A stretch of 64,000 bases of DNA from Escherichia coli. Lineage in GTDB: Bacteria; Pseudomonadota; Gammaproteobacteria; Enterobacterales; Enterobacteriaceae. Every line of letters starts with the position of its first letter. Position 1 is the first letter of the stretch. Of this stretch, positions 454 through 46,045 are shown piece by piece. The notes below the pieces were generated by a model. The model was given only the letters and a program-made list of their open reading frames with translations, searched no databases and was not told the origin of the DNA. A program made the translations under genes and the position numbers. The stretch lies in assembly GCF_030384885.1 (NCBI RefSeq), contig NZ_CP128613.1, one strand, 5' to 3'.

Positions 454-1263
454 ATGGAAAAGAAAATCGGTTTTATTGGCTGCGGCAATATGGGAAAAGC
501 CATTCTCGGCGGTCTGATTGCCAGCGGTCAGGTGCTTCCAGGGCAAATCTGGGTATATACCCCCTCCCCGGATAACGTCGCCGCCCTGCATGACCAGTTC
601 GGCATCAACGCCGCAGAATCGGCGCAAGAAGTGGCGCAAATCGCCGACATCATTTTCGCCGCCGTTAAACCGGGCATCATGATTAAAGTGCTTAGCGAAA
701 TCACCTCCAGCCTGAATAAAGACTCTCTGGTCGTTTCTATTGCTGCGGGTGTCACGCTCGACCAGCTTGCCCGCGCGCTGGGCCATGACCGGAAAATTAT
801 CCGCGCCATGCCGAACACTCCCGCACTGGTTAATGCCGGGATGACCTCCGTAACGCCAAACGCGCTGGTAACCCCAGAAGATACCGCTGATGTGCTGAAT
901 ATTTTCCGCTGCTTTGGCGAAGCGGAAGTAATTGCCGAGCCGATGATCCACCCGGTGGTCGGTGTGAGCGGTTCTTCGCCAGCCTACGTCTTTATGTTTA
1001 TCGAGGCGATGGCCGACGCCGCCGTGCTGGGCGGGATGCCACGCGCCCAGGCGTATAAATTTGCCGCTCAGGCGGTAATGGGTTCCGCAAAAATGGTGCT
1101 GGAAACGGGAGAACATCCGGGGGCACTGAAAGATATGGTCTGCTCACCGGGAGGCACCACCATTGAGGCGGTACGCGTACTGGAAGAGAAAGGCTTCCGT
1201 GCCGCAGTGATCGAAGCGATGACGAAGTGTATGGAAAAATCAGAAAAACTCAGCAAATCCTGA
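454..1263 (+). CDS. proC: Pyrroline-5-carboxylate reductase
   Basis: ORF 346-1263; internal start [20 protein letters not shown] at 454 preceded by AGGAG; Rossmann GxGxxG N-terminus; 269 aa as for ProC. Confidence 0.95.
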
Positions 1264-1279
1264 TGACTTTCGCCGGACG

Positions 1280-2395
1280 TCAGGCCGCCACTTCGGTGCG
1301 GTTACGTCCGGCTTTCTTTGCTTTGTAGAGCGCCAAATCTGCCGATTTCAACCACTCCCGATAGTGACTCATTTGTGGATTCAGCGGCGCGACACCCACA
1401 CTAATCCGTAACATCACCTGCGGTGTATTCGGCAAACGTAACGTATTTAGCCCTTCATGTACCCGTAACATGGCGGTAATGGCGCTCTCAGCTGGCGTAC
1501 CGGACATGATCACCGCAAACTCATCGCCACCAAACCGACCAATCACATCGCTACCGCGCAGGGTAATTTGTAATTGTCGGGTAAGCGCCACAATCGCTTC
1601 ATCGCCCACATCATGGCCCCAGGTATCGTTGATGCTCTTGAAATGGTCGATATCGATAATCAGTAACGTCGCATCGCGGTTATGCCGCCGACAGTTATCA
1701 AATTCATTGCGTAACATAGTTTCCCAATGACGTCGGTTATACACGCCCGTCATACCGTCGCGGGTACTCATGACCTGCAATCGGCGTTTATGTTCCGCCA
1801 GTTTAGTCGCCGTCTGGTAGCTGACCCAACCAAACAGCAGAGGATAAATGACGATAATGGGAAGGGAGAGCCACCATTCCAGCGGCGCACTATTGAACGA
1901 CACGGTGATACCCGTCAGTTCGAGGGTGACAAGGCAGGAAACCACCATCAACACCAGACCCGCGACAAACAGACGGGGGCCGCCTGCCCCCATCAAATTC
2001 AGACACATAATCATCAACATCGCGGTGGAAGGCAGCACGTTTACGCCCATTACGCCTACCCACATTCCCGCTAATACTGCATCGGTTTTTAAGTTATAAA
2101 TTTCCCGGCTAAGCGGATCGACAGCCCTACTCGCAATCTGCCAGGCTAAATGCGGCCAGACGAACGCCCAGCCGACCAACACCAGCCACCACCAGCCCGG
2201 CGGCGGGTGCGAAACCAGCGTTGAAGCAATCGGTAAGAACATGCCAGCCAGGCCAACCGCGCGGGGTAGTCTGACGCGACGGGCGAAGCGCAGCCCGGAC
2301 CGCTGATGTTCGTTTTGAGGAGTTAAAGGAGGTTCCTCCCCATGCGCCGCCGCTTTTTTGAAAAAGTTTTCATCATTCATTATTTTTGGGAACAT
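1280..2395 (-). CDS. dgcC: Diguanylate cyclase, membrane-anchored GGDEF protein (DgcC/AdrA/YaiC)
   Basis: 371 aa ORF with hydrophobic N-terminal half and C-terminal GGDEF motif (RFGGDEFAVI). Confidence 0.9.
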   Translation of the reverse strand: MFPKIMNDENFFKKAAAHGEEPPLTPQNEHQRSGLRFARRVRLPRAVGLAGMFLPIASTLVSHPPPGWWWLVLVGWAFVWPHLAWQIASRAVDPLSREIYNLKTDAVLAGMWVGVMGVNVLPSTAMLMIMCLNLMGAGGPRLFVAGLVLMVVSCLVTLELTGITVSFNSAPLEWWLSLPIIVIYPLLFGWVSYQTATKLAEHKRRLQVMSTRDGMTGVYNRRHWETMLRNEFDNCRRHNRDATLLIIDIDHFKSINDTWGHDVGDEAIVALTRQLQITLRGSDVIGRFGGDEFAVIMSGTPAESAITAMLRVHEGLNTLRLPNTPQVMLRISVGVAPLNPQMSHYREWLKSADLALYKAKKAGRNRTEVAA

Positions 2396-2453
2396 TCAGA
2401 AACAATTTTCCCAAATTATAGAGACGGGGCTAAAGGCAGAAGTATGAAATTTC

Positions 2454-2479
2454 GGGTGAGCCATTTTCGTAGCTCACCC
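2454..2479 (-). terminator. Hairpin downstream of psiF, possible terminator
   Basis: GGGTGAGC ... GCTCACCC inverted repeat immediately 3' of the psiF stop, followed by a short T-containing run on the minus strand. Confidence 0.4.
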
Positions 2480-2496
2480 GTTAGCACTATCAGGTA

Positions 2497-2817
2497 TCAG
2501 GCGGCTTTCTTGAGGCAGGCGCTCATAAACTTATTACGATCATCACCTTTCAGAGATTGTTGCGTTGCTTGATTATTACATTCGCGCATCTTTTGCTGCT
2601 GTGGCGTCAAACTTTTTTCACCAGGCGCAGACTTGCTGTTCTTCAGGCAATCACTCATGTAGGTCTTACGAGCATCCCCTTTCAACGCCTGCGCCGTCGC
2701 CTGCTGATTACAGGAGGTCATACGCTGTTGTTGCGGGGTTAAGGTTCTCTCGGCAGCGCCGACGGTGGTTAAAAAAACCAGTCCGAAAAGCAAGGTAACC
2801 AGTAATGTTATTTTCAT
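2497..2817 (-). CDS. psiF: Phosphate-starvation-inducible protein PsiF
   Basis: ORF 2497-2835; start MKITLLVTLLFGL at 2817; signal peptide and duplicated TPQQQ...C...ATQQ repeat; 106 aa. Confidence 0.85.
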   Translation of the reverse strand: MKITLLVTLLFGLVFLTTVGAAERTLTPQQQRMTSCNQQATAQALKGDARKTYMSDCLKNSKSAPGEKSLTPQQQKMRECNNQATQQSLKGDDRNKFMSACLKKAA

Positions 2818-2889
2818 AGCACCATCCCTCTTCATGTTTTAACCATGAGCGTTTGCGCCCGTGATCTGCCATTAAGTCTGGTTGCTAAC

Positions 2890-2928
2890 CGCAAAAAAAC
2901 CACCCGGCAGCGAAATTTCACCGCCGGG
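2890..2928 (-). terminator. Rho-independent terminator after phoA
   Basis: Minus strand reads CCCGGCGGTGAAATTTCGCTGCCGGG followed by a T7 run, directly 3' of the phoA stop. Confidence 0.6.
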
Positions 2929-2935
2929 CGAGGTT

Positions 2936-4351
2936 TTATTTCAGCCCCAGGGCGGCTTTCATGGTGTAGAAGAGATCGGTCTGGTCGGTCAGTCCAACGA
3001 CATTGGCGGCATGTGGGCCATACGCCGCAATACGCAGCTGACTACCGGTATGTTCTTGTGAATCCTCTTCGGAGTTCCCGTAACTCATCACCATCACTGC
3101 GCCATCTTTGGTATTTAGCGCCTGGGTGAGGCCCGGCGCTTTGGTGTCCGGCGCGACAATCTGGCTGGCGTGGGCGTGATCAGCGGTGACTATGACCAGC
3201 GTGTTGCCATCCTTTTTAGCGAATTCCAGCGCCCGTTGTACGGCTTCGTCGAGATCGACCGTCTCGCCAATTTGCCCACAAGGATTCGCCGCGTGATCCT
3301 GTTTATCGATTGATGCACCTTCAACTTGCAGGAAAAAGCCTTTCTCATTTTTACTCAACAATTCAATGGCTTTATCAGTCATCTGCGCCAGGGTCGGTAC
3401 GCTGTCATTACGTTGCGGATTAGGCGTACAGGTAACTGCGGGCTTGTCGATATTGCCGTGGTACGTTGCTTTCGGTCCTTGCCAGCGCACTGGCATATTG
3501 CCGTCAGCAAACAGTCCTAGCAGGGGTTTTTGCTGGTTCGCTTCCGTCACCGCATTCAGTGAGGCAGCATCGCTCACCAACTGATAACCACGCGCCTGCG
3601 CCTGTTCACGCAGCGTTTTTCCCTGCCATTCACCGGCGGTTGCCGTTTCCGCAAAGGTTTTTGCGCCGCCGCCAAGCGTAACATCGGCACGGGCGTTAAG
3701 CAGCTGTTCGGTAATCGATCCTTTTCCGCCTTTTTCCAGCGCGTTACCCGGACATTTTTCACTGGTCGCGCTCGGACCGTAGCATTTGCGCGAAGTCACA
3801 TGCGCCACCAACGCGGCGGGAGTGGCATCCTGCAACTCTGCGGTAGAAACGTTACCGGTCGCCAGCCCTGCGGCTTTTGCCATTTCCAGAATCGTTGGGT
3901 GATCTTTTTCATGAATATCGACACCCAATGCGCCGTTATAGGTTTTGACACCGGTTGACCAGGCAGTTGCTGATGCAGCCGAGTCGGTAACGTAGTCCGG
4001 TTTGCCGGTTTTTTTATTCAGCGCATAGTGAGTGTATTGCCCGGTAAGCGGTAAGGCATCAATACCTTTAAAAAAGCCGCCCGCACCTTCGGCATAATTA
4101 CGTGCGGCAGTAATTTCCGAATCCCCCATCCCATCGCCAATCAGCAAAATAATATTTTTTGCAGGCTTATCGCTAAGAGAATCACGCAGAGCGGCGCTCT
4201 GATCACCCGTTAAGCGGCGAGCACCGCCGGGTGCAGTAATATCGCCCTGAGCAGCCCGGTTTTCCAGAATAGGCATTTCTGGTGTCCGGGCTTTTGTCAC
4301 AGGGGTAAACAGTAACGGTAAGAGTGCCAGTGCAATAGTGCTTTGTTTCAC
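2936..4351 (-). CDS. phoA: Alkaline phosphatase
   Basis: ORF 2936-4393; GTG start giving [21 protein letters not shown] signal peptide at 4351; 471 aa; matches PhoA from memory. Confidence 0.95.
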
Positions 4352-4410
4352 TTTATTTTCTCCATGTACAAATACATTAAAAAATAAAAACAAAGCGACT
4401 ATAAGTCTCA

Positions 4411-4430
4411 GCCGTGACAGCTTTATGACA
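4411..4430 (-). promoter_or_regulatory. Pho box (PhoB binding site) of the phoA promoter
   Basis: Minus strand reads CTGTCATAAAGCTGTCACGG, two direct CTGTCA repeats, about 60 bp upstream of the phoA start. Confidence 0.7.
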
Positions 4431-4451
4431 GCTGTTGAAAAGATTACCTTT

Positions 4452-4712
4452 TTACTGACGAGGATGCTTCAATAACTTCTTTACATAATCGCGCAGCAGC
4501 TCCGTATCGTCGTCAGGAATGCTGGCATCGGGCTTTACCTCGTAAAGTGCCCCCTCAACCTGATCAATCAACCGCTGTTGGTCATTTTGCGCCATATTAC
4601 GAAGCATTGCAGTGACGATAATCTCCAGTGCTTCTACCTGCGCGCACAGTTCTTTCGACTCTTCTTCTTTTTGGGCAAGCTTAAATAACAACTCAGCAAT
4701 GAGATTTTTCAT
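4452..4712 (-). CDS. iraP: Anti-adaptor protein IraP (RpoS stabiliser)
   Basis: 86 aa [33 protein letters not shown]...; matches IraP/YaiB from memory. Confidence 0.9.
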
Positions 4713-5174
4713 GTCTGTATTTCCTTATCCAAAGTATGGAGAAGTTAACATTATGCTTCACAACTTCATAGTGTCTGGAGGTAGTATTTTTATGACGAAT
4801 GAAATACTTTGCGCAAATATTTTTTCCATATTTATCAGCGAAACGTTTCTCTTATTTAAATAAGTAACCATACAAAGTATAGGTTTTTAATTATCAACCT
4901 TTATTATAAGTAAAAGTTATGAAATATATTCTCTTTGCTAACTTATAATTAAGAGAAAAAAACTCACTGCATGGCCATTTAAACCAGGAATAAATTAGCT
5001 TCCCGTTCATCATTTTTGTGATCTTGCGCACATCTTTGAGATAACGCACTTTCTTCACCAGTACGTTGCACACTTTGTCAGTAGAAGATTGCAACATTCT
5101 GTCAGAAGGCCGCGAATCCCCCGTTTTGTCGTGGTAATGTATGCACTTTGTGTTAGACGGGATAGGTTTTCAAG

Positions 5175-6269
5175 ATGGAAAAACTGCGGGTAGGAATCGT
5201 TTTTGGTGGTAAATCAGCGGAACATGAAGTGTCTTTGCAATCGGCAAAAAACATTGTCGATGCCATTGATAAAAGTCGCTTCGACGTTGTGCTGCTGGGC
5301 ATTGATAAACAAGGGCAATGGCACGTCAGCGATGCCAACAATTATCTGCTAAATGCAGACGATCCTGCCCATATTGCGTTGCGCCCTTCGGCGACCAGTC
5401 TTGCGCAGGTGCCTGGTAAACATGAGCATCAGCTTATCGACGCACAAAACGGTCAGCCATTGCCGACGGTGGATGTCATTTTCCCGATTGTTCACGGTAC
5501 GCTAGGCGAAGATGGTTCCTTGCAGGGAATGCTGCGGGTCGCCAATTTACCGTTTGTGGGTTCTGATGTTTTGGCGTCAGCGGCCTGTATGGATAAAGAT
5601 GTCACCAAACGTCTGCTACGCGATGCCGGGCTGAACATTGCGCCATTTATTACCCTGACACGCACCAATCGTCAAAACATCAGTTTTGCCGAAGTGAAGT
5701 CAAAACTGGGGTTACCGCTGTTTGTAAAACCCGCTAACCAAGGCTCTTCTGTTGGTGTCAGCAAAGTAACCAGTGAAGAAGAGTACGCAATTGCCGTCGA
5801 TCTGGCGTTCGAGTTCGATCATAAAGTGATCGTTGAGCAAGGGATCAAAGGTCGTGAGATCGAATGCGCGGTTCTGGGCAACGACAATCCGCAAGCCAGT
5901 ACCTGTGGCGAGATCGTACTAACCAGCGATTTCTATGCCTACGACACCAAGTACATTGACGAAGATGGCGCGAAAGTGGTGGTTCCGGCAGCCATTACGC
6001 CTGAAATTAACGATAAGATCCGGGCAATTGCCGTTCAGGCTTATCAAACGTTGGGTTGCGCAGGCATGGCGCGTGTAGACGTGTTTTTAACCCCAGAGAA
6101 CGAAGTGGTAATCAACGAGATCAACACACTGCCAGGCTTCACCAACATCAGTATGTATCCGAAGCTGTGGCAAGCCAGCGGTTTGGGTTACACCGACCTG
6201 ATCACACGTCTGATCGAGTTGGCGCTGGAGCGTCACGCTGCGGATAACGCATTGAAAACCACAATGTAA
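5175..6269 (+). CDS. ddlA: D-alanine--D-alanine ligase A
   Basis: 364 aa [29 protein letters not shown]...; ATP-grasp ligase. Confidence 0.95.
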
Positions 6270-6503: not shown

Positions 6504-6762
6504 GGCAGCTCCGTTAACGAAAAATAACATCTTCGCATAATCGATAACTTACGTCTGTGGGGTAGACAGCATTTCCCGTATCGTTAAAAAATTTAACTTA
6601 AAGTTACCGTTTTGTGACTCGTGACAAATATTCCCGCTTCGGGAATATTCCCAACATCAATTTACCATGATTCTGATATTGACAATCTAAATGACCTGTC
6701 AGACTTGCCATAAGCCGCTGGTATGACACCAGAAGAGAAGTAGATGACTTCCGGAGGTTTTT

Positions 6763-19577: not shown

Positions 19578-19879
19578 GATTGTCTGCTCCCCTGTCTTGT
19601 TATGGGAGCAGTATTTCGTTGCTGGTCAGTTTGATAAAGGAATTAAAACGTCTTGTTAAGAACAAAGCGTTTTTAGAAAAAAACTGGCAATGGTTAGCGA
19701 GTTTACGCATTTTGCAGCTTGGGCGAATGTAGCATGCCGATTCACAAACCAGATCAGATGTTCGCTCTCCGGCAAATTATTGCCATTTTGTTACATCCAT
19801 TCCATATCTGTCGCTGGTTGATTGCCAGCGACGCGCCGTGATGCATGATAGGAGAATGAGATAATAAGAGAAGAAAAGT

Positions 19880-42932: not shown

Positions 42933-46045
<3,113 letters not shown>

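Follow-up and report, generated by a model that had tools for sequence, protein, structure and literature searches.

The region at positions 2300-4800 of the 64 kb window, which is the whole stretch of Escherichia coli DNA analysed, corresponds to the well-known phoA-psiF locus of this species. Taken together, its sequence and published K-12 data make it quite likely that expression of the two genes has three components, namely PhoB-driven transcription of phoA, a leaky terminator through which this transcription also feeds psiF, and a sigma-S-type promoter that serves psiF. Most likely, psiF uses both routes, read-through and a promoter of its own. The phoA promoter and its Pho box, the phoA terminator and the phoA-psiF operon are all already known, and the psiF promoter that we infer is a modest addition to them. 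How psiF is transcribed was left open by the original prediction; published ChIP-seq of PhoB and RNA-seq supply the answer.

The 2300-4800 segment is 100% identical to the corresponding part of E. coli strain 2013C-4282, and among 5,426 complete genomes of the species, all but one (5,425) have the locus, with identities of 95-100%. The RefSeq annotation of the 100%-identical chromosome and K-12 give the minus-strand gene order iraP-phoA-psiF-adrA, and the gene identifications that had been made from the sequence are right. The features of the region are as follows.

4712-4452, minus strand: iraP (RefSeq annotation).
4414-4431, minus strand: Pho box, direct repeats CTGTCAT-AAAG-CTGTCAC, at the -35 position of the phoA promoter (consensus and PWM).
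4398-4403, minus strand: phoA -10 hexamer TATAGT, 10 nt 3' of the Pho box (read from the sequence).
2936-4351, minus strand: phoA coding sequence, alkaline phosphatase, 471 aa, with a GTG start at 4351 and the stop at 2938-2936 (translation and RefSeq annotation).
2893-2931, minus strand: intrinsic terminator, consisting of a hairpin at 2931-2900 and T7 at 2899-2893 (terminator scan, fold and covariation).
2872-2882, minus strand: block ACCAGACTTAA, a candidate sigma-S-type -10 (conservation, Salmonella start site and RpoS dependence).
2497-2830, minus strand: psiF, made up of the Shine-Dalgarno (SD) region GAGGGATGGT at 2830-2821 and the coding sequence at 2817-2497, 106 aa (translation and RefSeq annotation).
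2454-2479, minus strand: hairpin after psiF, the end of the phoA-psiF unit, with no U-run (fold -20.1 kcal/mol, z = -5.2).
2395-1280, minus strand: adrA/dgcC (= yaiC) (RefSeq annotation).

The psiF ATG at 2817 is 118 nt from the phoA stop codon. An in-frame upstream ATG at 2835 was considered as the psiF start and rejected, as it is not conserved outside Escherichia in a 37-sequence alignment. When the 1200-5200 segment was used to query Rfam at E <= 1, no known RNA family was returned. Comparisons beyond E. coli were made with two sets of sequences. A scan of one genome per species yielded 80 psiF loci, 65 of which have the arrangement iraP-phoA-psiF, and the alignment used for structure and covariation contained 37 diverse enterobacterial sequences.

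The 20-mer CTGTCATAAAGCTGTCACGG is located at 4431-4412. The Pho box that had been predicted upstream of the phoA GTG is therefore present, although the coordinates given for it (4430-4411) were one base off. Its 18-nt core (4431-4414) has one mismatch to the degenerate consensus and is the sole match to CTGTCATAWAWCTGTCAY at <=3 mismatches in the 64 kb window, where 0.21 matches were expected by chance. A PWM was derived from the 59 sites that Fitzgerald et al. 2023 (PMC10294691, Table 1) list from PhoB ChIP-seq, and with it the phoA box scored approximately 21.3-21.4 bits and ranked first among 127,966 window positions. The match is real and not a product of chance. The box has the CTGTCAT-like repeats 11 bp apart and the A/T-rich 4 bp linker of a PhoB promoter, and it stands in for the -35 element, being followed by a 10 nt spacer and then TATAGT; from the box to the phoA GTG (4351) is 62 nt. 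This arrangement of box and TATAGT is conserved in the phoA-bearing loci that have the promoter inside the fetched stretch. The hexamer is the same in K-12, is kept across genera and is mutated in Enterobacter lineages that lack phoA. In K-12, the PhoB ChIP-seq peak at 401676 (score 20) is the phoA site and is the only peak between 332 kb and 417 kb, and phoA RNA is 200-fold lower in a phoB deletion (PMC10294691).

A strong hairpin and T7 run had been predicted after the phoA stop codon, and both were confirmed, at 2931-2900 and 2899-2893, respectively. The hairpin has 14 pairs, nine of them G-C, and its stem core starts 7 nt past the stop codon. Its fold of -27.8 kcal/mol has a z of -4.5, and none of 200 shuffles was as stable (0/200). 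In the 37 enterobacterial sequences, 99.5% of cells in the core helix are paired (RNAalifold and pair counts), and compensatory changes were found in 6/9 core pairs, for example CCCGGCAG/CTGCCGGG versus GCCGATGG/CCATCGGC. The covariation score was above those of 500/500 shuffles and of every slid control. Of the 65 phoA-bearing loci, 58 have a hairpin with a T-run behind it when judged by a simple rule. The stem core could be located in 59 loci, and in 50 of them the distance from the stop codon to its start is 6-8 nt. The hairpin is thus, as originally proposed, a terminator by its conserved and covarying structure, and in K-12 the RNA density in low phosphate falls approximately 2-fold (2.2-fold) across it. 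Its long G+C-rich stem and its seven Us give it the appearance of a strong canonical terminator, which speaks against read-through. A literature search on the phoA terminator found no papers.

RNA counts for K-12 wild type and a phoB deletion in low phosphate are available in Table S1 of PMC10294691. They are DESeq2-normalised and not length-normalised.

phoA: wild type 318,602 / 301,623 (mean 310,112); phoB deletion 1,490 / 1,607 (mean 1,548).
psiF: wild type 36,626 / 28,610 (mean 32,618); phoB deletion 852 / 659 (mean 755).
yaiC (dgcC): wild type 471 / 439 (mean 455); phoB deletion 53 / 76 (mean 65).

In these K-12 counts (PMC10294691), psiF RNA shows a 43-fold dependence on PhoB even though the gene lacks its own PhoB site. 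The per-nucleotide density of psiF is approximately 0.46 of that of phoA in the wild type, a steady-state ratio in which termination and decay are not separable. The density of yaiC/dgcC is only approximately 0.004 (about 0.4%) of that of psiF, yet it is 7-fold PhoB-dependent. RNA of msyB, a gene that depends on sigma-S, differs by just 2-fold between the wild type and the phoB deletion, so indirect RpoS effects cannot explain the 43-fold change in psiF. Given 43-fold PhoB dependence and a density of approximately 46% with no Pho box in the gap, we conclude that the phoA terminator appears to be leaky and that phoA-psiF behaves as an operon. On the simplest reading, approximately half of the phoA transcripts, judged by steady-state density, would pass the terminator and nearly all would stop after psiF, where a K-12 Term-seq 3' end has been mapped at 403649(+), equivalent to window position 2449. 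The proximity of the stem core to the stop codon suggests that a terminating ribosome could hinder folding of the hairpin and make the terminator leaky. Synteny in 65/80 species, a gap without a Pho box and a single K-12 ChIP peak at phoA are all features of an operon. phoA and psiF are handled as a single operon in the RNA-seq study (Fitzgerald et al. 2023, PMC10294691) and in two microarray studies, and a RegulonDB-derived table places psiF only in a phoA-psiF unit under PhoB (PMC6469107).

The 43-fold PhoB dependence of psiF could instead reflect a PhoB-dependent promoter of its own, whose Pho box would be degenerate and would lie within the gap or close to it. A 12.9-bit PWM match, AGTAATGTTATTTTCATA, does lie at 2801-2818, where it overlaps the psiF start codon. 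However, this match is antisense and sits at the start codon instead of at a -35 position, and there is no K-12 ChIP-seq peak at the equivalent of 2801-2818, although K-12 is identical over the aligned 2800-2817. It was rejected as a chance match on these three grounds. On the sense strand of 2810-2940 the best PWM score was -1.0, whereas the 59 bound sites all score 6.8 or more, and the consensus search at <=3 mismatches found no Pho box in the phoA-psiF gap. Hardly any of the 65 phoA-bearing loci has a Pho box in this gap, and K-12 PhoB ChIP-seq has no peak between 401676 and 417093 (PMC10294691). The PWM scan and the K-12 ChIP-seq thus confirm the original observation that the gap holds no convincing Pho box, and a PhoB-dependent promoter belonging to psiF, which we consider extremely improbable, is effectively already refuted. 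A different doubt concerns the hairpin. Stable 3' hairpins protect upstream mRNA, and the phoA hairpin might mainly be a stabiliser or processing end of the phoA mRNA. Most polymerases would then read on past it, and the 2-fold step in density would be produced by faster decay of the psiF segment. Protective 3' hairpins are known generally, a psiF/phoA density of approximately 0.46 is high for a hairpin this strong, and Term-seq finds no 3' end there. However, the missing 3' end is uninformative. The K-12 Term-seq was performed in LB or M63, and the 3' ends it recovered lie after psiF and inside phoA. Neither medium induces phoA, which explains why its terminator yielded no 3' end. The T-run is moreover conserved with the hairpin in 58/65 loci, and a pure stabiliser would not need one. 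We therefore regard a mainly stabilising role as improbable and retain the leaky terminator as the explanation for PhoB-dependent psiF RNA. It had been argued that psiF would need either read-through or a promoter of its own without a Pho box, and this is supported, as no clear PhoB site was found upstream of psiF and the hairpin does bear the structural marks of a terminator.

The candidate for the second route into psiF is the block ACCAGACTTAA, which is directly 3' of the terminator T-run. It includes C-CAGACT-TAA at 2881-2872, with CAGACT at 2880-2875, and the start predicted from it is near 2868. The block was found in 79 of the 80 psiF loci, including loci without phoA, and CCA..CTTA is invariant in the 37 diverse sequences. 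Numbered as a promoter, the invariant positions are C at -13, A at -11, C at -8 and T at -7, then TAA at -6 to -4, and the positions that vary are -10 and -9. The sigma-S extended -10 consensus reportedly reads approximately CTATACT followed by TAA. Set against this consensus, the block has A at -11, T at -7, C at -13, C at -8 and an A/T-rich -6 to -4. No -35 element is recognisable in the gap, an observation that speaks against a psiF promoter. A scan of 2300-4800 with the sigma-70 consensus, at 9/12 matches, found no promoter in the gap. Patterns for sigma-E, sigma-32, sigma-54 and CRP were also checked against the block by hand and were rejected, as they fit neither its sequence nor its spacing.

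A promoter at this position would fit data from several genomes. In Salmonella SL1344, which does not have phoA, SalCom records a psiF start site at 437138, 64 nt 5' of the ATG (PMC7913699). When this start was mapped on two Salmonella intergenic sequences (L016 and L025), it fell 7 nt past CAGACT, so that CAGACT occupies -12 to -7, with a C before it (-13) and TA after it (-6 and -5). In an EDL933 microarray psiF was 73-fold RpoS-dependent, and phoA is unmentioned in the main text of that paper. In O157 Sakai, the genes listed as switched on when cells enter stationary phase include psiF but not the adjacent phoA. In the K-12 phoB deletion, psiF RNA per nucleotide is 2.15x that of phoA (PMC10294691 counts). 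Against a psiF promoter, the sigma-S ChIP-seq supplement that was searched has no psiF entry. A Cappable-seq supplement has no entry for K-12 40322x-40324x, and psiF is unmentioned in the text of the Wong 2017 preprint.

The block has also outlasted phoA in lineages where an internal deletion removed that gene. In six such loci (L027-29, L033, L034 and L052), no Pho box is left and the block has been kept. The Enterobacter cloacae complex retains the Pho box, but its phoA -10 now reads TGTAGT or TGGCGT; despite this decay, the block, the SD and psiF itself are intact. Conservation, the Salmonella start site and RpoS dependence together lead us, on balance, to favour the block as the -10 of a PhoB-independent, sigma-S-type psiF promoter. 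This candidate promoter, which overlaps the terminator, is not in the RegulonDB-derived listing (PMC6469107) and would be a modest refinement.

Conservation of the block might also arise at the level of RNA. The block is complementary to the psiF SD AAGGAUGGU, with ACCA/UGGU and CUU/AAG pairing around a tandem G-A mismatch, and in Kosakonia and Phytobacter the complementarity is perfect over 8-9 bp. An anti-SD role would predict the same conservation pattern as a promoter role. It could therefore be proposed that psiF has no promoter of its own and is only the distal gene of the operon, reached via read-through, and that the block is an anti-SD RNA element tuning its translation. The RegulonDB-derived table, which lists only the phoA-psiF unit under PhoB (PMC6469107), is consistent with this, as is the lack of a sigma-70-like promoter in the gap, and for most genera the structure of lowest energy from ViennaRNA is the block-SD helix, at a probability of 0.5-0.8. 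In the window's own sequence, however, the probability of the helix is only 0.06-0.12 and AACCAG pairs with codons 6-8 instead. In the helix between 2882-2874 and the SD, no pair was found in which both sides have changed, variants on the SD side are uncompensated, and RNAalifold did not predict it. With neither covariation nor RNAalifold in its favour, the anti-SD helix was demoted from main role of the block to a secondary possibility. A psiF without its own promoter is also hard to reconcile with RpoS dependence and stationary-phase induction of psiF without phoA, with a phoB deletion that leaves psiF more RNA per nucleotide than phoA, with a Salmonella start mapped just past the block, and with the persistence of psiF, block and SD where the Pho box is gone or the phoA -10 is dead. 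We consider it unlikely.

The promoter and anti-SD roles of the block are not mutually exclusive. As a start at approximately 2868 lies past the block, only the read-through transcript would carry it. This allows the speculative proposal, to which we attach little probability, that the gap is a compact terminator-promoter module giving two psiF mRNA isoforms of unequal translational competence. The long PhoB read-through mRNA would carry ACCAGACUU, which could pair with the psiF SD or early codons and dampen translation, and the short sigma-S mRNA from approximately 2868 would be free of the anti-SD. One invariant 11-nt sequence would then be both a DNA -10 element and an RNA translational attenuator. 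According to a preprint, the sRNA CpxQ represses PsiF near its SD, and this may add to the conservation of the psiF SD region.

The explanation we prefer, PhoB-driven read-through into psiF together with a sigma-S-type psiF promoter, can be set out as follows. Under phosphate limitation, phospho-PhoB would bind the Pho box at 4431-4414, which would replace the -35 element and bring the sigma-70 holoenzyme of RNA polymerase to the promoter with TATAGT. Transcription would then cross phoA to the conserved intrinsic terminator approximately 7 nt past the stop codon. This terminator would be partly efficient in vivo, such that approximately half of the phoA-level RNA density reaches psiF. A leaky terminator would thereby make psiF PhoB-induced without a Pho box of its own, and the phoA-psiF unit would close at the hairpin after psiF. 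Acting as a sigma-S-type -10, the block ACCAGACTTAA would provide stationary-phase and stress expression of psiF uncoupled from phoA. An intra-operonic terminator with an apparent leakiness of approximately 50% is relevant to the reuse of phoA parts and to operon annotation that relies on hairpins only. A sigma-S-type psiF promoter at the terminator, if true, would explain the persistence of psiF in phoA-less lineages and would tie psiF to general stress more than to phosphate scavenging alone.

Comparison with the K-12 phoA promoter revealed the same two 7-bp direct repeats with 11-bp periodicity, 10 bp 5' of TATAGT, and only three differing positions over the approximately 140 bp aligned. 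One of these is in the Pho box, where a T in K-12 is C here (CTGTCATAAAGCTGTCAC here, ...AAAGTTGTCAC in K-12). The K-12 box has a PWM score of 20.2, below the approximately 21.3 of this strain, in which PhoB binding is predicted from the sequence. With canonical intrinsic terminators, the phoA terminator shares a G+C-rich stem, a 4-nt loop, a 7-U tract and an A-rich 5' flank that can extend the stem. Unlike them, it is intra-operonic, its stem core is 6-8 nt from a stop codon, and its apparent efficiency by RNA density is only approximately 50%.

The candidate psiF promoter resembles sigma-S promoters at each of the invariant positions listed above, from C at -13 to the TAA at -6 to -4; its gene is RpoS-dependent, and its -35 is poorly conserved, which is common among such promoters. 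It differs from the sigma-S consensus in having C instead of T at -12 and in the G at -10. The phoA-psiF unit itself has the same gene order and spacing as in K-12, with a 118-nt gap that is approximately 98% identical, and in K-12 psiF is PhoB-coregulated with phoA. There is no structural difference between the two units, and what is added here to the K-12 description is a probable independent sigma-S-type psiF promoter.

Directly 3' of the T-run of the phoA terminator lies an invariant block.

2872–2882, minus strand: block ACCAGACTTAA

This block has been kept among enterobacterial genera, including genomes from which phoA has been deleted. A start site in Salmonella lies 7 nt 3' of the position matching ACCAGACTTAA, and the block fits a candidate -10 element of the sigma-S type. 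The Shine-Dalgarno sequence of psiF is also complementary to it.

In eight psiF loci from the one-genome-per-species scan, phoA has been lost through an internal deletion (~3150–3500 in each). Four are in the Enterobacter cloacae complex (L057, L061, L062 and L067), one is in Leclercia (L077), one in Citrobacter sedlakii (L023) and two in Salmonella arizonae and diarizonae (L016 and L025). All eight retain the Pho box, the first and last phoA codons, a remnant of the terminator and psiF, but the phoA -10 of the E. cloacae complex now reads TGTAGT or TGGCGT, through decay of TATAGT. In six other loci (L027–29, L033, L034 and L052), no Pho box is present in the 139–166 nt gap between iraP and psiF.

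When the window was scanned with the PhoB weight matrix, matches beyond the phoA Pho box included the following.

2801–2818, plus strand: AGTAATGTTATTTTCATA, 12.9 bits, rank 5 in the window
6602–6619, minus strand: PhoB matrix match
43002–43019, minus strand: PhoB matrix match
19778–19795, minus strand: PhoB matrix match

The AGTAATGTTATTTTCATA match overlaps the psiF start codon on the antisense strand, and no ChIP-seq peak has been reported at the K-12 equivalent of this site. The other three score 14.2–15.9 bits, close to the median score of the sites bound in ChIP-seq. The match at 6602–6619 shares the orientation of yaiZ and lies approximately 100 nt upstream of that gene; around the K-12 equivalent of this match, at ~399.5 kb, the ChIP-seq data list no peak.

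Inside the phoA ORF, 103 nt into the gene, K-12 Term-seq places a 3' end at 401850 (~4248 in the window, minus strand), which was seen in two conditions, with phoA uninduced in both. A strong opposite-strand 3' end at 403612 (window 2486) coincides with the hairpin that ends psiF, and this hairpin therefore appears to be bidirectional. The psiF-adrA intergenic region (~2358–2486) also includes a promoter-like site.

2358–2386, plus strand: TTGAAA-17-TATTTT

Transcription from this site could produce an RNA of ~95 nt antisense to the start and 5' UTR of adrA/dgcC. In published K-12 RNA-seq, yaiC (dgcC) was 7-fold PhoB-dependent, at a read density ~0.4% of that of psiF (PMC10294691). These data suggest that, under phosphate limitation, slight read-through from phoAp reaches the diguanylate cyclase gene adrA/dgcC (1280–2395, minus strand).
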